Below are positions 4,820-32,022 of a stretch of DNA of 64,000 nt, in pieces. Origin of the DNA: Deltaproteobacteria bacterium. Lineage in GTDB: Bacteria; Myxococcota; Kuafuiibacteriia; Kuafuiibacteriales; Kuafuiibacteriaceae. The position numbers and the translations under genes are program-made. The notes under the pieces are model-generated. The model searched no databases. It was given only the letters and a program-made list of their open reading frames with translations, and was not told where the DNA came from. Each line of letters begins with the position of its first letter. Within the stretch, counting starts at the first letter, position 1. Where the stretch lies: assembly GCA_040218735.1 (NCBI GenBank), contig JAVJQW010000019.1:32001-96000 (forward strand), read 5' to 3'.

Positions 4820-5557
4820 TTGTCCGACGCGGCGTTTTCGGTCGAGCCGCGGTACCCTTCGGTGATGGACGATCTGACGCGCGATCGACTCGAAGAGCTC
4901 CTGGACCGGCGAGGCACGTTCTTCGAGGCGCGCTGGCGAGGCGTCGACTTCCTCGTGCTCGACACGCTCGCTTTCGGCGCGGGCGAGAAACGGTGGGACG
5001 AGGAGATCGGCTACCTGCTCGTCGACCTTCCGCGCCCGAACCCGTGTGATCTCCTCCTCGACTCGCGGCGCGAGGCGGACGACGGAGCGGGAGACGATCT
5101 ACATCGTTACTTCACGTGGTCGGCGACGAACGACCAGCTCGTGACGTCGCAGATCTGCGGCGCGCTCCTCGACGTGATGCTGTCGCTGCGCGAGCGCTAC
5201 AAGCGCGTCACCGTCACGGACGACTGGGTGGGCTTCGGGCCGATCGCCCGTGCGCCGTCGGAGTTGGTGGACGACCTCGACCGCGTCGTACAGCTCGCGC
5301 TCGCGTCGCGCGGCGAGGACTTCGACGCCGGCCCGCCCGGATGGGAGACGAAGGGGAGCTTCCCGACCCGGCGCCGATCCGCCGAGGCGCAGTTCGTCGC
5401 ACCGCCGGTGGGGTGGTCCACGGACAGCGCACCGGACGGCCCGAACGCCGAACCGGCGGAGGGCGCCGAGCTCCCGTTCTGTTACTTCTGCGGCGCCGCG
5501 ATGGAGCGCGTCGCACGCGTGTGCCCGGAGTGCGGCGCGGACCTCAGCGACGACTGA
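4820..5557 (+). CDS. Hypothetical protein with C-terminal zinc ribbon
   Basis: CYFCG...CPECG at C-terminus; start uncertain (ATG at 4865 also possible). Confidence 0.65.
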   Translation: MSDAAFSVEPRYPSVMDDLTRDRLEELLDRRGTFFEARWRGVDFLVLDTLAFGAGEKRWDEEIGYLLVDLPRPNPCDLLLDSRREADDGAGDDLHRYFTWSATNDQLVTSQICGALLDVMLSLRERYKRVTVTDDWVGFGPIARAPSELVDDLDRVVQLALASRGEDFDAGPPGWETKGSFPTRRRSAEAQFVAPPVGWSTDSAPDGPNAEPAEGAELPFCYFCGAAMERVARVCPECGADLSDD

Positions 5558-5592
5558 ACACACTCCGCGCCGAGCAGTGGTATCTTCGCGGC

Positions 5593-6618
5593 GTGGGCAA
5601 ACGCGCTTGGGGCTCCGCTGGCGTGGTGTTCGCGCTGCTCGCGACCGCGGCGGCCCGCGCGGAGGAGCCCGGGGCCCCCGAGCTCACCCCGACCGCCGCG
5701 AGCCTCGACGTCCTGATCCCCATCATCACGCACGTCGGCACGTTCGTGGAGTATCGGCGGGTGATGGTTGCGCGGGGTCGGCCGCCCTTGATCCCAATCG
5801 TGACGCCGCACGGGACGCTGGTGCACCCTACCGGTACCGGTACCGGTCCGGGTCCCGACGGCGGCGCCGCGATTGAGGCACGAGGGGTGGGCGCCGCTTC
5901 CGTTTCCGCGTCCGTTTCCGCTTCCGCTTCCGAGTCCGCTTCCGAGTCCGTCACCAGCTTCGGTTCCGGCTCCGCGTCCGCCTCGGAATCCGGCTCTGTC
6001 CCCCCGCCGCGTAGCGCGGATCGCGGAGCTTCGTCGAAGGGCGAGGGTAGCGTCGCCGGCTCCGCCGCGACCGCGGGCGCGAAGGTCGCCGCCCCGACGG
6101 CGCGGCCCCGCTCCGCGCTCTCCCTCGCGCTCCACTACGAGGCCGGCTACTTCGGCCCCGCCGACGTGAACGCCGAGCTCACGGCCCGGGCGGGCGTCGA
6201 GCGTAACTTCGTCCTCTTCGGGGGCCTCGGCCTCGGGCTCGAGGTTCGTCCGCACCCTTGGGTCGGGCTGTCGGCGACGACGAGTTACCTCCTCGCGCCG
6301 CCGGAGACGATCAACCTCGAGGTCCACTATCTGCACGCGTTCGCGGGCACGGTCGCGGCGCGGCTCTACGTCCCCACGGTCGACGCGCTCGACATCGCGA
6401 TGGGCGTCGAGGGCTCGATCCACTGGGCCGGCTACCAGGACACCAGCGCCGTAGGCCCCGGGTTCGTGTGGCGCTTCGGCGTCCAGCTCCTCGACCCGGA
6501 CCTCCCCGCCGTGCTCGCCACGATCTACGTCCGCCGCGCCAAGCTCCGCGACGACGACGGCTTCGAGCTCGACCTCTCCGGGATCGGCGCGATGGCCGAC
6601 TTCTCGTTCGACCTATAA
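5593..6618 (+). CDS. Putative outer-membrane beta-barrel protein with low-complexity linker
   Basis: Signal peptide (..ATAAARA-EEP), TG/SA/SE-rich linker, alternating beta-strands, C-terminal DFSFDL; TATCTT 6 nt before GTG. Confidence 0.6.
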   Translation: MGKRAWGSAGVVFALLATAAARAEEPGAPELTPTAASLDVLIPIITHVGTFVEYRRVMVARGRPPLIPIVTPHGTLVHPTGTGTGPGPDGGAAIEARGVGAASVSASVSASASESASESVTSFGSGSASASESGSVPPPRSADRGASSKGEGSVAGSAATAGAKVAAPTARPRSALSLALHYEAGYFGPADVNAELTARAGVERNFVLFGGLGLGLEVRPHPWVGLSATTSYLLAPPETINLEVHYLHAFAGTVAARLYVPTVDALDIAMGVEGSIHWAGYQDTSAVGPGFVWRFGVQLLDPDLPAVLATIYVRRAKLRDDDGFELDLSGIGAMADFSFDL

Positions 6619-6867
6619 CGCGTCGGTCGACGCGAGCAGCTCGGGACGGAAGTCCCCACGCACCCGCACCAGCGGGGCGAACCGCGTCTTCCGTCGCACC
6701 CGCACCAGCGTCGCGCTCGGTTTGACGAGCTCCCCGGACAGCCGCACCTCCGAGAACTCGATGACCGTCTTCTTCTTGAAGGCCTCCTGAGGCGCCTCCT
6801 CCTCCGCGAACGCGACGCCGGGGACCGTGAGCATCAGGGTCAGCAACCCCGTGAACCATCTGTTCAT
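6613..6867 (-). CDS. cglF: Adventurous gliding motility protein CglF/GltF-like
   Basis: Signal peptide then KKKTVIEFSEV.LSGELVKP...RRKTRF..LVRVR.DF.PEL..S.D.L, matching remembered CglF consensus. Confidence 0.75.
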   Translation of the reverse strand: MNRWFTGLLTLMLTVPGVAFAEEEAPQEAFKKKTVIEFSEVRLSGELVKPSATLVRVRRKTRFAPLVRVRGDFRPELLASTDAL

Positions 6868-6887
6868 GTTCCTTCGGTGCTTCGAAG

Positions 6888-7904
6888 GTGGCGAAGCCTT
6901 ACAGAATGAAGTTGACTACGGCTCCGGTGGCCAAGAAATCGGATGTCATCTGGAACGAGCTCAGCCTCGTTCTGCAGGCGGGCAAGCCCAAGGAGATCGC
7001 CCGCCACCTGCACCTGCTCTCGAAGCAGCAGCTGCACCCGCTCTTCCGCGCCGCCCTCGACGCGCAGATCCTCTGGAACGAAGGCGCGATCGCGCAGGCC
7101 TGCGAGGAGCTCGAGAACGCGCAGAAGACCCGCAAGCTCGGGCCGCACGAGATCCTGATGCTCGGCCTCATCCTCTACGAGAAAGAGGAGTTCGACGAGG
7201 CCGAGAAGCAGCTCGACTTCGCGTTCGAGAAGGGCGTCCTCGACAGTCGCCTCGTCCTCGCGCGCGCCGGGGTCCAGATCGCGAAAGAGAAGTACACCGT
7301 CGCGCGGAAGATCCTCCACACGTCGCTCAAGGCCGAGATGAACCAGTGGCGCGCGTGGCTGCTGCTCGGCGAGGTGGAGATCCTCCGCAAGGATCTCCGC
7401 GCCGCCGCCGACGCTTTCCTCGCCGTCACGCGCCTCGCCCCGAACTTCGAGCCCGGCTGGACCCACGCCGCCGGCGTGCTCGTCGACCTCGGCTACCCCG
7501 AGCGCGCCGCCGAGCTGCTCCGCCGCATCTGCAGCGTGCGTCCGAGCTTCGTCGCCGCGCAGCTCGCCTTCGCGCAGGTGCTCCAGAACCTCGGGCAGTT
7601 CAAAGAGGCCCTCCACTGTCTCCGCACCGTCGGCCGCTACGCGATGGAGCCGACGATGCTCATGGAGATCGCGGAGATGATGTTCAAGCTGCAGGAGTAC
7701 CAGGACTGCGCGAACATCCTGAACCGCGCGCAAGAGCAGGCGCAGCACCTCCCCAAGCTCTGGTTCCTCCGCGGCGAGCTCGCCAACGCCGCCGGACTCG
7801 AAGGTCGCGCCAACGCGATCCAACACTACCGAGAAGCCCTGCTCCGCGACCGCGAGTTCAAACCCGCACGCGAGCGCCTCGACGCCCTCCTCGCCCAGAT
7901 CTGA
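6888..7904 (+). CDS. Tetratricopeptide repeat protein
   Basis: Repeated helical TPR patterns (AWLLLGEV, LAFAQVLQNLGQFKEA, LWFLRGEL); start may be ATG 6906. Confidence 0.8.
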   Translation: MAKPYRMKLTTAPVAKKSDVIWNELSLVLQAGKPKEIARHLHLLSKQQLHPLFRAALDAQILWNEGAIAQACEELENAQKTRKLGPHEILMLGLILYEKEEFDEAEKQLDFAFEKGVLDSRLVLARAGVQIAKEKYTVARKILHTSLKAEMNQWRAWLLLGEVEILRKDLRAAADAFLAVTRLAPNFEPGWTHAAGVLVDLGYPERAAELLRRICSVRPSFVAAQLAFAQVLQNLGQFKEALHCLRTVGRYAMEPTMLMEIAEMMFKLQEYQDCANILNRAQEQAQHLPKLWFLRGELANAAGLEGRANAIQHYREALLRDREFKPARERLDALLAQI

Positions 7905-7978
7905 AGCGGGCCTGACGCAACGCGACGTCGACAATAGGTGTAGCGACCGGCTCGCCGGGCCCGTAGGCTCCGCGCCGC

Positions 7979-9994
7979 ATGGGCCGCCGCCGCAAGTACG
8001 CCAGCGCATCCCCCCCCGCGCCGATCGACCTCAACCCGATCTCCGAGCCCGTCCTCGACTTCCCCGACCGCGACCTCGCGGACATGACGCCCGACGACTA
8101 CGCCCGCCTCGGCTTCATCTGCGGGCTCGAGGTGCACCAGCAGCTCCTCACGCAGCGCAAGCTCTTCTGCCGCTGCCCCGCCGGCGTGCGCACGCGCGAG
8201 GTCGACGCCGAGGTCCTCCGCCACATGCGCCCCACCCTCTCCGAGCTCGGCGAGTACGACGGCTGCGCGCTGATGGAGTTCAAGACGAAGAAGGAGATCC
8301 TGTATCTCCTCGCGCACGGCCTCGTCTGCACCTACGAGATGGACGACACGCCGCCGTTCGAGATCGACCCGCTCGCCGTGAAGCGCGCGCTCGAGGTCTC
8401 GGCGATGTTCGACATGAACCTCGTCTCCGAGCTGCAGGTCATGCGGAAGCAATACCTCGACGGCTCGATCCCCACCGGCTTCCAACGCACCGCGATGGTC
8501 GCGCTCGGCGGACAGATCCCCATGCGCGAGAGTGAGCTCGGTCCGGACCGTGTGCTCCGCATCCGCCAACTCACGCTCGAAGAAGACAGCTGCCGCGAAG
8601 TCCGCGACCACGGCCACAACATCATCTTCCGCACTGACCGCCTCGGCACGCCGCTCATCGAGACCGTCACGGAGCCGGACCTCGTCACGCCCCACGACGT
8701 CGCGGTCGGCGGGCGCCTAATCGCCTCCGTCGCGCGCGCGTCGAACAAGGTACGACGCGGGCCGGGCGCCGCGCGTCAGGACGTGAACGTCTCGATCGCC
8801 GGCAGCCGCCGCGTCGAGATCAAGGGCGTCCCGAACCACCGCATCCTCCCGCGCCTCGTGCACAACGAAGCGTTCCGGCACCTCAACCTGCTGCGCATCC
8901 GCGACCTGATGCACAAACGCGAGCTCGCGGAGAGGGACTTCCAGATCGACGACAGCGAAGACGCGTGGACGTCGAGCCTCGTCGTCGACGCGCGGCGACT
9001 GCTCCGCGGCTCCGCGTTCCTCCCGATCGTGGAGGCGCGCGCGCAGGGCGAGATGGTCTGCGCCGTTCGCATCCCGCGCTGCGCGGGCCTGCTCGCGCAC
9101 CGCACCCAACCCGGGCACGTCTTCCTGCAGGAGCTGTCGGAGCGCGTGCGGGTGATCGCCTGCCTGACGCCGCCGTTCATGATCTCGTCGGACACCCACG
9201 CGGACGCGCTGTCGAGCGTGGTGTGGCAGCAGCTCCGCTCCGCGACCGGCGCGACGCGCGACGACGCGATCGTCGTGGTGTGGGGCCCCGAGGACGACGT
9301 CGACACCGCCGCGCGCGAGATCCTGACCCGCGCCGCCGACGCGACCGTCGGCGTCCCCTCCGAGACACGCCAGGCCCACGGCGACGCCTCGACCGGCTTC
9401 GAGCGCATCCTCCCCGGCCCCGAGCGCATGTACCCGGACACCGACACGCCGCCCCTCCCGATCCCCGACGTGTGGCTCGAGGACAACGCGGCACACATGG
9501 CGCCGCGTCCGTGGGAGCGCGAGGACCGCTACCTCGCGGACGGCGTCACACCGGCGCTCGCAAGGCAGCTTGCATCTTCGGTGCACGCGCCCACCTACGA
9601 AGCGCTCGCGCCGAAGACGAAGGACGCCGCGGTGCGTGTCGCCGCGATCCTCGTCGGGCGGCTGCGGCGGTTGAACACGATCGAACCGGAGCGCGTCGCG
9701 CCGCTGGTTCGTGCGGTGGAGGCGGGGACGCTGCTCCCCGAAGCGCTCGACCTCGCGTTCCTCCGCGTGCGGGACGGCGAGAAGGCCGAGACGGTGCTGC
9801 GTGACTTCGAGGTCGCGCGTGATCCCGACGCGCGCCTGTCGGAGGCCGTGGCGAAGGTCGAAGCCGCGAAGAAGGCCGTCCTCACGAAGGACGTCGAAGC
9901 GCGTTGCCGGTGGGCGATGGGCTTGGTGATGCCGGACCTGATCGGGCGCGTCGCGCGCACGACGGTCGAGGCGCGCGTGCGGGAGGTCCTGTGA
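7979..9994 (+). CDS. gatE: Glu-tRNA(Gln) amidotransferase subunit E (archaeal type)
   Basis: GLEVHQQL, KLFCRCP, RPTLSELGEYD, MRKQYLDGS.PTGFQRT, LEED, DRLG.PLIE, RQDVNVSI, VEIKGV, AspRS-like insertion (CAVRIP..AGLL....QPG), GVP.ETR, PG.ERMYPDTD. Confidence 0.92.
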   Translation: MGRRRKYASASPPAPIDLNPISEPVLDFPDRDLADMTPDDYARLGFICGLEVHQQLLTQRKLFCRCPAGVRTREVDAEVLRHMRPTLSELGEYDGCALMEFKTKKEILYLLAHGLVCTYEMDDTPPFEIDPLAVKRALEVSAMFDMNLVSELQVMRKQYLDGSIPTGFQRTAMVALGGQIPMRESELGPDRVLRIRQLTLEEDSCREVRDHGHNIIFRTDRLGTPLIETVTEPDLVTPHDVAVGGRLIASVARASNKVRRGPGAARQDVNVSIAGSRRVEIKGVPNHRILPRLVHNEAFRHLNLLRIRDLMHKRELAERDFQIDDSEDAWTSSLVVDARRLLRGSAFLPIVEARAQGEMVCAVRIPRCAGLLAHRTQPGHVFLQELSERVRVIACLTPPFMISSDTHADALSSVVWQQLRSATGATRDDAIVVVWGPEDDVDTAAREILTRAADATVGVPSETRQAHGDASTGFERILPGPERMYPDTDTPPLPIPDVWLEDNAAHMAPRPWEREDRYLADGVTPALARQLASSVHAPTYEALAPKTKDAAVRVAAILVGRLRRLNTIEPERVAPLVRAVEAGTLLPEALDLAFLRVRDGEKAETVLRDFEVARDPDARLSEAVAKVEAAKKAVLTKDVEARCRWAMGLVMPDLIGRVARTTVEARVREVL

Positions 9995-11385
9995 GCGATC
10001 CGAAAGAAGACTTCAAGGGCTACCGCGATCCGACGCGGAGCGTGATGCAGAAGTTCGGCGTGACTGTCTGGAGCCAGGTCGTCGCGAAGACGACGCGAGG
10101 GACCTTCGAAGGTCTCGTGCTCCCGCGCTCGGAGACGTCGGACGCCGACCACCTCGTGCTGAAGATGTGGACCGGCTACAACATCGGGATCCGCCACGAC
10201 ACGATCGAGTCGCTCGACAAACGCGGGTACAAGAAGGCCGAGTACAAGATCCCGGAGGAGGAGTTCCCGAAGGATCCCGAGAAGCCGCGCGTGATGTTGT
10301 TCGGCACCGGCGGCACGATCGCTTCGCGCCTCGACTACCGCACCGGCGCCGTCATCCCCGCGTTCAGCCCCGGCGAGCTCTACGGCTCGGTCCCCGAGCT
10401 CGCGGACGTCTGCAACCTCGATACGGAGAAGCTGTTCGGCGTCTTCTCGGAGAACATGGGCGCCGAGCAGTACCGCGTGCTGGCGGCGCGATGCGGCGAG
10501 GCGATCGAAGCCGGCTACGACGGCATCGTCATCGGCCATGGCACCGACACGATGCACCACACGGCGGCGGCGCTGACGTACATGGTGCAGGACACGCCCA
10601 TCCCGATCGTGATGGTCGGGAGTCAGCGTTCGTCGGACCGGCCGTCGTCGGACGCCGCGCGCAACCTGATCGCGGCGGCGAACGCGGCGGCGCACGGGAA
10701 GATCGCCGAGGTGATGGTCTGTATGTTCGGGCCGACCTCGGATCAGTACAACCTGCTCCACCGCGGCCCGCGCGTGCGCAAGATGCACAGCTCCTACCGG
10801 AGCACGTTCCGCACGCTCGGTGATCTACCGCTGGCGATGATCGAGGACGGGAAGCTCACGCCGATCAAGAAGGAGTTCCGTCAGCGCGATCCGCTGCGCA
10901 AGGCGAAGGTGACGCCGGTCTTCGAGGAGCGCGTCACGATCCTCTACTACTACCCGAACATGCAGCCCGACGTGATCGATGCGCTGGTCGACTGCGGCTA
11001 CAAGGGCATCGTCATCGCGGGCACCGGCCTCGGCCACGTGAACCGCCTCGTGTACCCCGCGCTCGAACGCGCGCGCGACAAGGGCGTGCAGGTGTACATG
11101 ACGCTGCAGACGCTGTGGGGCTTCGTGCAAATGCACGTCTACGAGACGGGCCGCGAGATCCTGCAGCTCGGCGTCGTCCCGCTCGCGAACATGCTGCCGG
11201 AGGTCGGGTACATCAAACTCGGCTGGGCGCTCGGCCGGCACCCCGACGATCCGGAAGCCGTGCGGGCGCTGATGCAGACCCCGATCGGCGACGACATGAC
11301 GGAGCGCGAGCCCTTCGGCGGCTACCTGGTGTTCCAGGGCGGCGTCCCGGAGATCACGGGGTTCGTGAAGAAGATCCTGTCGTAA
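9991..11385 (+). CDS. gatD: Glu-tRNA(Gln) amidotransferase subunit D (archaeal type)
   Basis: GatD-type N-terminal domain (FEGLVLPR.E......VLKM.TGYNIGI), GTGGTIASRLDYRTGAV, HGTDTM, GSQRSSDRPSSD, RKMHSS, GTGLGH; GTG overlaps gatE TGA, GGAGG upstream. Confidence 0.92.
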   Translation: MSDPKEDFKGYRDPTRSVMQKFGVTVWSQVVAKTTRGTFEGLVLPRSETSDADHLVLKMWTGYNIGIRHDTIESLDKRGYKKAEYKIPEEEFPKDPEKPRVMLFGTGGTIASRLDYRTGAVIPAFSPGELYGSVPELADVCNLDTEKLFGVFSENMGAEQYRVLAARCGEAIEAGYDGIVIGHGTDTMHHTAAALTYMVQDTPIPIVMVGSQRSSDRPSSDAARNLIAAANAAAHGKIAEVMVCMFGPTSDQYNLLHRGPRVRKMHSSYRSTFRTLGDLPLAMIEDGKLTPIKKEFRQRDPLRKAKVTPVFEERVTILYYYPNMQPDVIDALVDCGYKGIVIAGTGLGHVNRLVYPALERARDKGVQVYMTLQTLWGFVQMHVYETGREILQLGVVPLANMLPEVGYIKLGWALGRHPDDPEAVRALMQTPIGDDMTEREPFGGYLVFQGGVPEITGFVKKILS

Positions 11386-11448
11386 TCTTACACGCCCGCG
11401 TAATCCAACGGAGCACAACGCTGGGATGCGGCGACCGATAAGACCGGT

Positions 11449-12936
11449 ATGACGCGGCAGGTACCATTGGGCAGCCCCGTGCTGTTCCAGAAGCCGGGCG
11501 TCGAGCGCTTCGACGCCGACGGCGACCAGCACGTCTCGACGGACGAGCTCGACCTCGCCGAGAAGGCGGCGCGCGGGGCCCTCTCGGGGCTTCGGCTCGA
11601 GAACGCACTGCGCCAGCTCGACGAGCTGCGCGACAAAGTCGATGCGCAGGGCACCCCGGGCACGCCGCTGCCCGCGGACGCGGTTCCGACACCCGAGATC
11701 GTCGAAGGCGTAGAGCTGCTCGCCGGGCCGCTCGGGATCCTCGTCCCGCTCGAGCTGCACGTACGGCCCGAGGTGGTCCTCGCGACCTCCAACGCACAGC
11801 GAACCTCGGCGCGTCTCGAGCTGCACTTCCCGCTCGAAGATCTCGGGTTGCCGGACGACGACGCGAAGATCCTCCTCGAAGGCAGCGGTGCATGGGGCGC
11901 CGGCCCGAGCACACGCGTCGACGACGACGCATCGGTGAAGCTCACGCTGCACACGCGCGACGACGGAGGAATCGTGGCTTCGCTCGAAGCCGACCGCGTG
12001 CTCATCGCGAGCCTCGGCAAGCTGCAGTTCGTCTACGAGACCGAAGGCGGGACGGACCGCGCCCTCCGCGTGACCCCCGAAGAGGTTCGGCTCGACGACT
12101 CGGCGGGTCACCGCGTGGACCTTCGCGATCGAATCGAGCGATCCCAAAGCCAGCTCGCGAAACTCGAGGATCGCGTCGCGCGGCTGCGCGACCCGGCGAT
12201 CGACACCGACGTGGAGGCCTACTACGTGGAGCTCACCGCGGAGCAACGGACGCTGAGCGGGCGGGTAGCGACGCTCGAGGGCGAGCTCACCCGGGTGAAG
12301 ACCGCGTACGCCGAAGCACAGGGCGCGGCGATCGAACGTCTGGACGCGGGCGACCTCCCGGCGGCGTTGATGTCGCGCGTCGGCGCGGATCTATTGCCGC
12401 CGGCGTGCCTGGATGATCTGAACGTCATCACCGCGGCCGACGCGACGCGCGCGGAGGCGGAGGAGCGTGCGACGCTCTTGAAGCAGATGCTCGACGTGCT
12501 CAGCGCCGCGCCACCCGATCAAACCGAAGAGATGGCGCGCGAGCTGCGGGAGGTCGAGGCGAAGGCGGCGGACGCTGCGGCGACCGCGGCGGCGCGCTGG
12601 GCGCAGGTGAAGGGGGCGATCACCGACCTCGCGGGCACGCCCGAGGTCGACGACTTCCTCGTGCGCATCGAAGGCTACGGGCGGGATCGTCCGCTCGCGA
12701 CGCTCCGGTCGGAGCGGAGCGCGATCGAGTCGGACCACGCCAACGTTTCTCGCGAGCTGCGTGAGGTCGAAGCAGACCTGGGGAATCGCGACGTTACGAT
12801 CGAAGCCATCGCGCAGCGAACCGCCGACAAGTGCGCGGAGGTTTCGGATCGCATCGTCGCGCTCCAAGCGGAGCTCGACAGCGGCGCGACCCGAATCGTG
12901 ACACGCCGGTTCGACGCCGACGGCCAGCCGGTCTGA
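11449..12936 (+). CDS. Hypothetical protein with long coiled coil
   Basis: Host-like codon pattern; heptad-rich C-terminal half; no family recognised. Confidence 0.7.
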   Translation: MTRQVPLGSPVLFQKPGVERFDADGDQHVSTDELDLAEKAARGALSGLRLENALRQLDELRDKVDAQGTPGTPLPADAVPTPEIVEGVELLAGPLGILVPLELHVRPEVVLATSNAQRTSARLELHFPLEDLGLPDDDAKILLEGSGAWGAGPSTRVDDDASVKLTLHTRDDGGIVASLEADRVLIASLGKLQFVYETEGGTDRALRVTPEEVRLDDSAGHRVDLRDRIERSQSQLAKLEDRVARLRDPAIDTDVEAYYVELTAEQRTLSGRVATLEGELTRVKTAYAEAQGAAIERLDAGDLPAALMSRVGADLLPPACLDDLNVITAADATRAEAEERATLLKQMLDVLSAAPPDQTEEMARELREVEAKAADAAATAAARWAQVKGAITDLAGTPEVDDFLVRIEGYGRDRPLATLRSERSAIESDHANVSRELREVEADLGNRDVTIEAIAQRTADKCAEVSDRIVALQAELDSGATRIVTRRFDADGQPV

Positions 12937-12942
12937 GCTCGG

Positions 12943-14670
12943 TCAGAGTGTCTCGAGGAACGTGACGAGATCGTCGCGCTGAGCTGCGTCGAGCCCTTCG
13001 ACGTCGCCGTGCTCGCGGCCGCCGCACGTCCAGTCGAAGCGTTGGTGCAGCGTCGCCGCGCAGCCGTCGTGCATGTAGGGCGCGCGAGAGCGTACGCCGC
13101 GGAGGCTCGGCACTTGGAACGCCGCGCCGGTGCCGACGTGGACCGTCTCGTTGTTCGTGAGCGCGTCGCCGCTGTGGCAGTCGCCGCATCGTGCCTGCTG
13201 GAAGACGGCGCGACCGCGATCGATCGCGGCGTGGTCGGTCGGGCGTCGAGTCTCGAGCGGCGCGAGCGTTTCGAGCCATCGTTCGAGGAGCTCCGTGTCG
13301 ATGCCCTCCACGGGACCGCTGCCCATGCGGCCCACCATCACGACCGACATGATGTGGCCGAGGTCTTCCATGTCGCCGTCCCAGTGGAACGGTTCGGTGC
13401 CCGCGAGGCCGCGTACGGTCTGCGTGCGTCGCAGGCCGATGTCGGCGAAGTTCCAAGTGTGTCCGTCGTCCCGGCCTTCGGGGTGGCAGTGCGCACAGGC
13501 GACGCCTCCGCTCTGCGCGCGATGGAACATGTCGTGGCCCGTGTCGCGAACGTTCGCGCCGGCGAGGTCGACGTGTCGGTCGCCGATCGAGAGCTGCGGC
13601 GGCTCGCGAGAGAACGCGATCAGCTTGCCGGTCTTCCCCATCTCGACGGCGACCGCCTGACCGCCTTCGCGACCGGTCTCGGGGTCGATCATGAACGGGC
13701 GTTGCAACACGCTGCCGCGGGCGAACTCGAACTCGATCAGCGTCGACGTGCTTCGGTGAGCCCCGGGTGCGGCGAGGAACGCCCAGCCCTCTTGGGGTCG
13801 CAGGACGAAGTCGACGGCCAGCCCGTCGGTCGAGCCGGACGTCACGTACGTGAGGTCGGGCGCGAACTGCGTGATGTTCGTCGTGACCAGCGGCGCGAAC
13901 CCGCCGCCCCCGTACGGGGAGCCGCGCTGCGGCCCTGGAGCGGGCTCAGTTTCGACGACGGCGGTCGTGGCCATCTGGTGGAGCACGAGGACGCCGCCTT
14001 CGGGTGCGGCGCGCATGCGCCAGGCGGTGCTCGCCTCGAAGTCCCGGTGGAACAAGGTGCGCACCGGCCGAACGCGCCCGACGGGTGCGTCGCTCTCCAG
14101 CCGTAGCAGCTCGGCGCGGCGGAAGGTCGACACCCACGTGCGTCCGCCTTCGACGACGATGTCGCGCAGGTCGTCGGCGACGTAGACCGAAGTCGTCGGA
14201 CGTTCGCCGCGCGGATCGATGCGGAACATCTCGCCGCCGACGCAGACCACGAGCACGAGCACGCGGTCGGGATCGAATGCGATCCCGCGCGGCGCCGGGC
14301 AGACGTCGAGGCGTTCGACGAGGCGCTCTTCGATCGGATCGATCGCGGCGACCGCGCCCGCCGAACGCAAGACCACGAAGAGCGAGCCGTCGGGGAGGAA
14401 GAGCGCGCGACCGGGGTCGTCGCCTTGCGTCAGCGCGATCGTGCGCGGCGGACGCGTTTCACCGAGCGAGACGATGTGGACGACGTCGCGATCGCTGTCC
14501 GCGACGGCGACGAGCCCGCGTGCTTCGTCGAGCGCCATCGTGCCGCCGGAGATCGGTTTGGGGATCGGATCCGCCTTCACACGCTGGCCGAAGGACCCTG
14601 TGCCCAGGTCGTCCGAGCACGCCCACGGGGCGCAGCACATCGCCGCGGTGATGATCGAAAGTCGTCGCAC
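12943..14670 (-). CDS. YVTN/YncE beta-propeller plus di-haem cytochrome c (CcP/MauG-like) lipoprotein
   Basis: WAC lipobox-like, propeller repeats, CAHCH and CGDCH, PFHWDG, VPSLRGV...APYMHDG; GGAGG before GTG at 14670. Confidence 0.85.
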   Translation of the reverse strand: MRRLSIITAAMCCAPWACSDDLGTGSFGQRVKADPIPKPISGGTMALDEARGLVAVADSDRDVVHIVSLGETRPPRTIALTQGDDPGRALFLPDGSLFVVLRSAGAVAAIDPIEERLVERLDVCPAPRGIAFDPDRVLVLVVCVGGEMFRIDPRGERPTTSVYVADDLRDIVVEGGRTWVSTFRRAELLRLESDAPVGRVRPVRTLFHRDFEASTAWRMRAAPEGGVLVLHQMATTAVVETEPAPGPQRGSPYGGGGFAPLVTTNITQFAPDLTYVTSGSTDGLAVDFVLRPQEGWAFLAAPGAHRSTSTLIEFEFARGSVLQRPFMIDPETGREGGQAVAVEMGKTGKLIAFSREPPQLSIGDRHVDLAGANVRDTGHDMFHRAQSGGVACAHCHPEGRDDGHTWNFADIGLRRTQTVRGLAGTEPFHWDGDMEDLGHIMSVVMVGRMGSGPVEGIDTELLERWLETLAPLETRRPTDHAAIDRGRAVFQQARCGDCHSGDALTNNETVHVGTGAAFQVPSLRGVRSRAPYMHDGCAATLHQRFDWTCGGREHGDVEGLDAAQRDDLVTFLETL

Positions 14671-31896: not shown

Positions 31897-32022
31897 AAAA
31901 CTGAGGCGCCACGAAATCCTTTGCAGTTCGACGACTTGGGCGCGTGCGCGCGGCCACGACGGCGACACGGGTGTCATGCCGCTGCAAGCGCCGTCACCTT
32001 CGGCTAGGGTGCGCGTGCTTCG

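Follow-up and report, generated by a model that had tools for sequence, protein, structure and literature searches.

The archaeal amidotransferase GatDE, known from structures of the M. thermautotrophicus enzyme with tRNA(Gln) (PDB 2D6F) and of the P. abyssi enzyme (PDB 1ZQ1), combines a tRNA-binding kinase/transamidase subunit, GatE, with an asparaginase-type amidase subunit, GatD, and reads the A1-U72 pair of tRNA(Gln) (PMC2330236). GatDE has been called "an archaeal signature protein" (PMC2330236) that "occurs exclusively in archaea" (PMC2811023), and reviews of 2008, 2009 and 2022 confine GatDE to archaea and use this in arguments on the last common ancestor and on the co-evolution of GatDE with archaeal tRNA(Gln). 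In bacterial GatCAB (S. aureus, PDB 3IP4), the paralog of GatE is GatB, which has the same cradle core and chemistry, and the core of GatD is akin to type I L-asparaginase (AnsA). Here we describe a gatE-gatD gene pair in a 64,000-nt stretch of bacterial DNA, referred to as the window (positions 32,001 to 96,000 of contig JAVJQW010000019.1, assembly GCA_040218735.1), from a genome labelled Deltaproteobacteria bacterium and placed in the Myxococcota. The pair is a genuine, conserved bacterial member of the GatDE family, although its host has no obvious need of the enzyme, and it probably encodes a working Glu-tRNA(Gln) amidotransferase that runs beside GlnRS, its substrate being deduced from protein motifs and gene linkage.

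Relative to the archaeal enzymes, the window has the same two subunits and the same gene pair. Its GatE shows the cradle core with three Mg ligands, the AspRS-like insertion, the helical and tail regions and the short basic loop of archaeal GatE, and its GatD the N-terminal domain and the type I asparaginase fold with Thr/Thr-Lys-Asp residues. What differs is the bacterial clade, a host tRNA(Gln) with U1-A72, a partly changed tail motif, an N-terminal extension of GatE, and coexistence with GlnRS, which no archaeon has according to reviews. GatCAB differs in its partner subunits, an amidase-type GatA with GatC instead of an asparaginase-type GatD, although both enzymes would face tRNAs with U1-A72. 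Full-text literature searches, with subscription journals and supplements outside their scope, returned no paper describing GatDE in bacteria, in agreement with the statement of the initial annotation that no characterised bacterial example was known.

The gene pair and its two proteins

Gene gatE (671 amino acids) occupies window positions 7979–9994 on the forward strand, as assigned from the open reading frame (ORF), the TIGR00134 match and structure alignment. Gene gatD follows on the same strand at 9991–11385, assigned from TIGR02153 and the TIGR and Pfam domains, with a product of 464 amino acids that begins at an in-frame GTG (9991) within a longer ORF (9904–11385, +). Direct reading places the gatE stop codon TGA at 9992–9994, so that the gatD start and the gatE stop share the overlap GTGA (9991–9994, +), and a Shine-Dalgarno-like GGGAGG (9981–9986, +) ends 4 bases upstream of the gatD start. 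The overlap suggests translational coupling of the two genes. No internal stop or frameshift interrupts the ORFs at 7979–9994 and 9904–11385. The G+C content at third codon positions (GC3) is 0.93 in gatE and 0.88 in gatD, compared with 0.84–0.91 in neighbouring genes, and Pfam detected no mobility domain in the 10 flanking ORFs scanned. The initial annotation, made from the letters alone, had proposed an intact, full-length operon in a bacterium with a GTGA overlap and a Shine-Dalgarno sequence, a codon style like that of the host, no adjacent mobility gene, an AspRS-like insertion that separates GatE from GatB, and a GatD with its own N-terminal domain and catalytic motifs; each of these proposals is borne out here and in the two paragraphs below.

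On the GatE equivalog model TIGR00134, the window protein scores 376.8 bits against a cut-off of 319.55; on a second GatE model, NF003107, it reaches 433.9 bits, under the cut-off of 456. The GatB models return 101–116 bits, far under their cut-offs (best 115.7 versus 338; TIGR00133, 101.3 versus 314.8), and the protein is thus not GatB, the distinction for which a profile comparison had been suggested. Residues 40–658 align with both archaeal structures (1zq1_C and 2d6f_C, E about 1e-79), and His53, Glu201 and Glu228 align with His15, Glu157 and Glu184 of M. thermautotrophicus GatE, the Mg ligands required for kinase and transamidase activity (PMC2330236); none of these residues varies among the 38 bacterial GatEs compared. 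The Pfam GatB_N match spans residues 47–500 although its profile has 277 positions, and the alignment to 1zq1 and 2d6f passes through the AspRS-like insertion, which is absent from GatB. An AlphaFold2 model built from the 38 bacterial GatEs (mean predicted local distance difference test score, pLDDT, 86.9; predicted template modelling score 0.85) finds the archaeal chains first in Foldseek (1zq1_C at 5.9e-43, 2d6f_C at 1.9e-41), then GatB chains at about 1e-21, and gives weak AspRS matches (e.g. 1c0a at 2.8e-3) that fit the insertion. Pfam GatB_Yqey was not reported at E ≤ 0.001, and the tail still aligns to residue 658 of 671. About 39 residues precede the point at which both solved archaeal GatEs start, with pLDDT above 90 from about residue 21; an NP..P.LDF-like motif within residues 1–39 is common to the closest bacterial GatEs. 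Three cysteines of GatE (C64, C66 and C117) were considered as a bacterial-specific feature and ruled out, as M. thermautotrophicus GatE also has CxC.

GatD exceeds the threshold of two equivalog models, TIGR02153 with 472.1 bits (cut-off 324) and NF003217 with 466.5 (cut-off 310), and Pfam recognizes GatD_N (43 bits versus 25.7), Asparaginase and Asparaginase_C. The core also matches the asnASE_I subfamily model, at 348 bits, less than the score on the GatD equivalog, whereas on the GatD model the ordinary asparaginases of relatives get no further than about 200 bits; together with GatD_N and the apparent coupling to gatE, these scores set the protein apart from AnsA. The motifs GTGGT (105–109), HGTDT (183–187) and KMH (264–266) do not vary in any of 13 aligned bacterial GatDs. 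T106/T109, T185-D186 and K264 would supply the Thr nucleophile and the Thr-Lys-Asp triad, a one-to-one assignment that borrows the residue roles described for asparaginase-type catalysis of GatD (PMC2330236). Comparison of gatD with a same-genus ortholog, whose protein is 93% identical, gives 0.049 nonsynonymous substitutions per nonsynonymous site (dN), 0.36 synonymous substitutions per synonymous site (dS) and a dN/dS of 0.14; gatD is under purifying selection.

Distribution and phylogeny of bacterial GatDE

The window GatD is one of many in bacteria. In a word-based protein search, the best 120 of 8000 scored matches are 73–100% identical to it, and the named ones among these 120 are GatDs of metagenome-assembled genomes (MAGs) of Acidobacteriota, Gemmatimonadota, Myxococcota or "Deltaproteobacteria". 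When one genome per species was scanned, at least 600 pattern matches resulted, of which at least 593 stretches in genomes of bacterial species were confirmed by tblastn. The locus survey took the best 80 of these confirmed stretches (65–93% identical), with phyla assigned by record titles. These carriers span more than 15 phyla, among them Gemmatimonadota, Eisenbacteria, Planctomycetota, Acidobacteriota (some under the title Aminicenantes), Myxococcota, Krumholzibacteriota, Calditrichota, Zixibacteria, Ignavibacteriota, Bacteroidota, Fibrobacterota, Cloacimonadota, Lentisphaerota, Spirochaetota and records labelled Clostridia. One of the 80, Labilibaculum sp. K2S (Bacteroidota; locus L100), is by title an isolate rather than a MAG; it carries GlnRS, AsnB and AsnA and lacks GatB. 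Where the loci extend far enough upstream, gatE almost always immediately precedes gatD on the same strand. Alignment columns across phyla average 74% identity in GatD and 54% in GatE.

A gap in identity separates this group from other GatDs. In an exhaustive search of representatives clustered at 50% identity, two full-length proteins are 56–57% identical to the window GatD (one of them 943 amino acids long), a handful of fragments shorter than 370 amino acids reach 55–71%, and all other full-length proteins are at most 46% identical. The next named archaeal matches lie at 44–45%: GatD of Sigynarchaeota (P0126), which at 45% is the closest named archaeal sequence by score, followed by Nitrososphaerota (P0132) and Thermococcus (P0133). 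In a FastTree phylogeny of 159 rows (120 of 150 representatives, 30 of 78 locus GatDs, 7 Myxococcota loci and 2 asparaginases), all 38 bacterial rows form one clade (support 93), which with representatives P0125 and P0188 becomes a group of 40 with support 100. A quick IQ-TREE search (LG+G4, 78 rows) places a branch with a Shimodaira–Hasegawa-like approximate likelihood ratio (SH-aLRT) support of 100 between six named archaeal GatDs and 40 bacterial-labelled rows, namely the window GatD, 29 locus GatDs, 7 Myxococcota loci and 3 named bacterial proteins. By profile scores, structure alignment and fold comparison, the two window proteins belong to GatE and GatD and are set apart from GatB and ordinary asparaginases. 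This large, strongly conserved clade of bacteria with GlnRS and a U1-A72 tRNA(Gln) contradicts the premise that GatDE is confined to archaea.

Phyla are intermixed within the bacterial clade. The window GatD belongs to a subclade of 11 rows, supported at 100 in both trees, together with sequences from Eisenbacteria, Planctomycetota, Acidobacteriota, Gemmatimonadota, Krumholzibacteriota and two "Myxococcales" MAGs, and the GatDs of other Myxococcota families fall in a different subclade. GatD is over the cut-off in 10 of 61 genomes of the phylum and, within the family of the window genome, in its own genus alone (2 of 20 genomes). The best explanation appears to be that the genes have moved between bacterial phyla and, most likely, that this genus received gatDE from another bacterium, at a time remote enough for host codon usage to have been acquired. 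The idea of a lone, old import across domains into this organism, as initially put forward, does not survive, since its GatD belongs to a large all-bacterial clade and its nearest relatives are bacterial. The clade as a whole would go back to one ancient split or transfer, in either direction, the tree not being reliably rooted. P0125 and P0188, the group nearest to the main bacterial rows, were considered as a pointer to an archaeal donor and discarded: the nearest named relatives of P0125 are bacterial (Bipolaricaulota, GN15 and Zixibacteria), and no archaeal donor lineage can therefore be named.

Two records may join the subunits. An Aminicenantes locus (L075:7381–10377) holds GatE-like and GatD-like parts in one stop-free frame, and in the 943-residue representative, P0124, the match to GatD falls in the C-terminal half. 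Either natural fusion of GatE with GatD or frameshifts from sequencing may account for them.

Aminoacyl-tRNA routes in the host and in other carriers

In terms of alternative routes, the host genome is well provided. The survey for glnS, gatCAB and gltX that had been recommended found GlnRS (723 bits), GatA (591 bits), gatB (C8:317056–318480, 521 bits) and one full copy of GluRS together with a GluQRS-like fragment; AsnRS (634 bits) is present as well, as are at least seven full-length asparagine synthetases of the AsnB family over the cut-off (contigs C9, C24, C6, C8, C67, C23 and C52). Since GlnRS, AsnRS, GatA/GatB and AsnB are all present, GatDE is not needed for any known essential step in this host. 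At least seven AsnB homologs are unusually many, and some may serve other amidations. ARAGORN, with 79 tRNA calls over the whole genome, identifies two tRNA(Gln) genes (anticodon CUG on contig C54, UUG on C58). Both have U1-A72, the pair that the initial annotation had ascribed to bacterial tRNA(Gln). No tRNA(Gln) with A1-U72 occurs among the 79 calls, and contig C41 is without a tRNA gene; the proposal that GatDE serves an unusual tRNA thus finds no support. When five other carriers were compared by BLAST with the host tRNA(Gln), one alone gave a match, carrier G047, whose tRNA(Gln) (UUG) is also U1-A72.

Other carriers show a similar overlap of routes. Among 10 Myxococcota carriers, GlnRS is over the cut-off in 9 (missing only from a 75%-complete MAG), AsnRS in 9 and GatB in 5; in one family of the phylum, f3, GatD is found in 5 of 6 genomes and GatB in none of the 6. 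Among 30 named carriers of other phyla, GlnRS is over the cut-off in 27 and GatB in 15, AsnB matches are present in 26 (25 over the cut-off) and AsnA matches in 3. Linkage to glnS is the more specific clue: glnS directly adjoins gatDE in 5 of the 80 loci, in two different orders, downstream in three Gemmatimonadota (L027, L031 and L055) and upstream in one Planctomycetota and one record titled "delta proteobacterium" (L028 and L033). In L027, gltX adjoins gatDE on the side opposite to glnS, and in the Myxococcota genome G053 glnS is divergent and lies some 0.4 kb away from gatE and some 2.2 kb away from gatD. All-against-all clustering of ORFs from 81 loci found no conserved partner genes besides gatE, gatD and their shadow frames, and no other gene family is common to more than 6 of the 81.

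In several Myxococcota without GatB, a match to the GatB tail (YqeY-like) lies inside the long open frame of GlnRS (e.g. G028:C96:4113–6290, G059:C161:901–3144 and G023:C79:11842–13986). These frames resemble GlnRS-YqeY fusions such as that described in Deinococcus.

Substrate, proposed role and alternatives

The features that distinguish GatE from GatB bear on the choice of substrate. Bacterial tRNA(Asn) and tRNA(Gln) both have U1-A72, for bacteria generally, and GatB reads this pair through a 3-10 turn, where GatE has a short conserved basic loop; in place of the Lys-rich tail motif found in GatB, GatE carries GXXAXG, to which a role in the rejection of Asp-tRNA(Asn) is attributed (PMC2811023). 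The loop of the window GatE, KVRRGPG, aligns without gaps with archaeal KRGLG, and KVRRGxG without an inserted 3-10 turn is found in 38 of 38 bacterial GatEs. In its tail, CRWAMG has lost the first Gly of GXXAXG and kept the Ala and the second Gly (RWAMG, compared with archaeal GMGAMG), and no Lys-rich motif is present, whereas the host's own GatB carries both NMEE at the 3-10 turn and KGKAKP as the Lys-rich motif. The GatE-type loop, the partly kept tail motif and the missing Lys-rich motif appear to favour Glu-tRNA(Gln) over Asp-tRNA(Asn), and Glu-tRNA(Gln) is most likely the substrate. The further suggestion that the enzyme amidates a different substrate altogether is not favoured by the sequence features examined. 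As the host tRNA(Gln) is U1-A72, recognition must differ from that of archaeal GatDE or tolerate either A-U orientation.

By analogy with the archaeal enzyme, we infer that the two proteins form a complex, of the alpha2-beta2 type, with the following chemistry. GatE would bind the mischarged aminoacyl-tRNA and phosphorylate its side-chain carboxyl with Mg-ATP; GatD, as an asparaginase-like amidase, would free ammonia from Gln or Asn; and GatE would then amidate the activated intermediate. GatDE would in this way provide a second route to Gln-tRNA(Gln) beside GlnRS, or a clean-up route, and GatCAB would be left for Asp-tRNA(Asn), mirroring the archaeal division of labour.

Several observations weigh against a Glu-tRNA(Gln) amidotransferase working beside GlnRS. 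The enzyme is redundant in its host, given GlnRS, AsnRS, GatA, GatB and at least seven AsnB homologs, and in the 40 carriers examined it is almost never the sole apparent route, which fits an auxiliary or a different role. GlnRS is also present in 34 of 51 non-carriers; because it is so common there, and because kin are not independent, its co-occurrence with GatDE is suggestive and weak when taken alone. The archaeal identity pair A1-U72 is missing, both host tRNA(Gln) genes and that of G047 having U1-A72. Mapping of T. thermophilus Arg358 onto the host GluRS was considered as a test of discrimination and dropped: across 27 GluRS from genomes with different sets of amidotransferases and GlnRS, the equivalent residue is Arg in 26, including GatB-only genomes that lack GlnRS and in which GluRS must be non-discriminating, so the position says nothing about mischarging of tRNA(Gln) by the host GluRS. 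On both genes, the metatranscriptome X21 contributes only short contigs from a related strain, and its library may contain DNA; these contigs were rejected as proof of transcription. The literature searches found no enzyme assay of any bacterial GatDE.

An extended form of the proposal, which we put forward tentatively and regard as doubtful in its entirety, is that the whole bacterial clade is a true second Glu-tRNA(Gln) amidotransferase in which first-pair recognition has been re-tuned from A1-U72 to U1-A72 with the GatE-type loop retained. It would supply Gln-tRNA(Gln) independently of GlnRS in hundreds of GlnRS-bearing species, for example with asparagine as amide donor when glutamine is scarce, and might also make Asn-tRNA(Asn) where GatCAB and asparagine synthetase have been lost. 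If this is true, the "archaeal signature" label of GatDE needs revision, and so do the evolutionary scenarios that rest on that label. Bacterial GatDE offers a clean experimental system for first-base-pair recognition by GatE, and it makes one ask why two or three parallel ways of making Gln-tRNA(Gln) are maintained in bacteria.

The strongest alternative, which we consider unlikely, is that bacterial GatDE acts on Asp-tRNA(Asn), alone or besides Glu-tRNA(Gln), and has replaced GatCAB where the latter was lost. GatB is indeed missing from half of the carriers (15 of 30 named and 5 of 10 Myxococcota, the latter including all of f3), bacterial tRNA(Asn) shares U1-A72 with tRNA(Gln) (PMC2811023), and 4 of 19 GatB-less carriers tested (G031, G047, G085 and G088) have neither AsnB nor AsnA. 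A striking contrast is seen within one genus, in which G047 has GatDE and no AsnA or AsnB, whereas G021 lacks GatDE and has both. However, AsnB or AsnA is present in the other 15 of these 19, AsnRS is found in 9 of 10 Myxococcota carriers, and missing genes can be mimicked by MAG incompleteness; a rationale based on asparagine synthesis, followed up with searches for AsnB and AsnA, was therefore set aside, as it fits only the four GatB-less carriers and not the host genome. In the host the need is absent, with GatCAB, AsnRS and at least seven AsnB homologs in place. [quoted passage not shown]

Improbable, and more so than action on Asp-tRNA(Asn), is a job outside general translation, in which GatDE would amidate charged tRNA for non-ribosomal use or act as a regulated glutaminase/asparaginase, its name then reflecting ancestry. 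Redundancy with GlnRS, AsnRS and GatCAB in the host would fit such a role, as would the divergence of the GatE tail and insertion domains (GatE is 39–60% and GatD 60–80% identical to the window proteins). Against it, no biosynthetic or other partner is conserved across the 81 loci, no neighbours recur apart from glnS and gltX, GatE keeps its kinase/transamidase residues without variation, and archaeal GatD is inactive without charged tRNA (PMC2330236).

The least probable reading, an artefact or relic in the form of contaminating archaeal DNA, a chimeric assembly or a recently imported gene pair in decay, could appeal to the description of the family as archaeal and to an 11.6-Mb assembly of 70 contigs (96.5% complete, 4.65% estimated contamination), but it is already refuted by a contig of 440,849 bp that also carries the host glnS 280 kb away, by host-like GC3 and uninterrupted frames, by the same-genus ortholog under purifying selection, by nearest relatives that are all bacterial, and by independent DNA over both flanks. 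The last of these comes from metagenome runs of several studies in which the stretch was found, those with a share of at least 0.5 being compared over window positions 5500–13500. A 10,884-nt contig from run X3, of a study other than the probable source, covers window positions 5831–13500 with 99 differences and 1 gap. This contig is a close strain and not the same assembly, with about 1.3% substitutions across 7.7 kb and one extra C at position 7910, between a TPR gene and gatE. Shorter pieces from runs X2 and X4 bridge the upstream, gatE/gatD and downstream junctions. Because the independent X3 contig spans both flanks, the chimera and contamination readings fail, and the archaeal assembly chimera that the initial annotation had named as grounds for rejection is disposed of.

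Downstream of the pair, a 495-residue ORF (11449–12936, +) begins 64 bases past gatD and has host-like GC3. Its match to the PolyA_pol head domain is weak (E 0.007), with no usable Atlas relative, and it was dropped as a GatDE partner because it is absent beside gatD in the same-genus genome and at other loci. A scan of the locus gave no promoter-like site, and terminator-like sites are at chance level. Elsewhere in the host genome, ARAGORN made one tRNA-Sec call and three odd long calls (an 85-nt "Glu" and two "???"), at C39:357204–357300, C39:136670–136754, C1:30301–30396 and C52:102760–102854. The three odd calls were discounted as unusual tRNAs, as they look like GC-rich false positives; the tRNA-Sec call suggests selenocysteine use.

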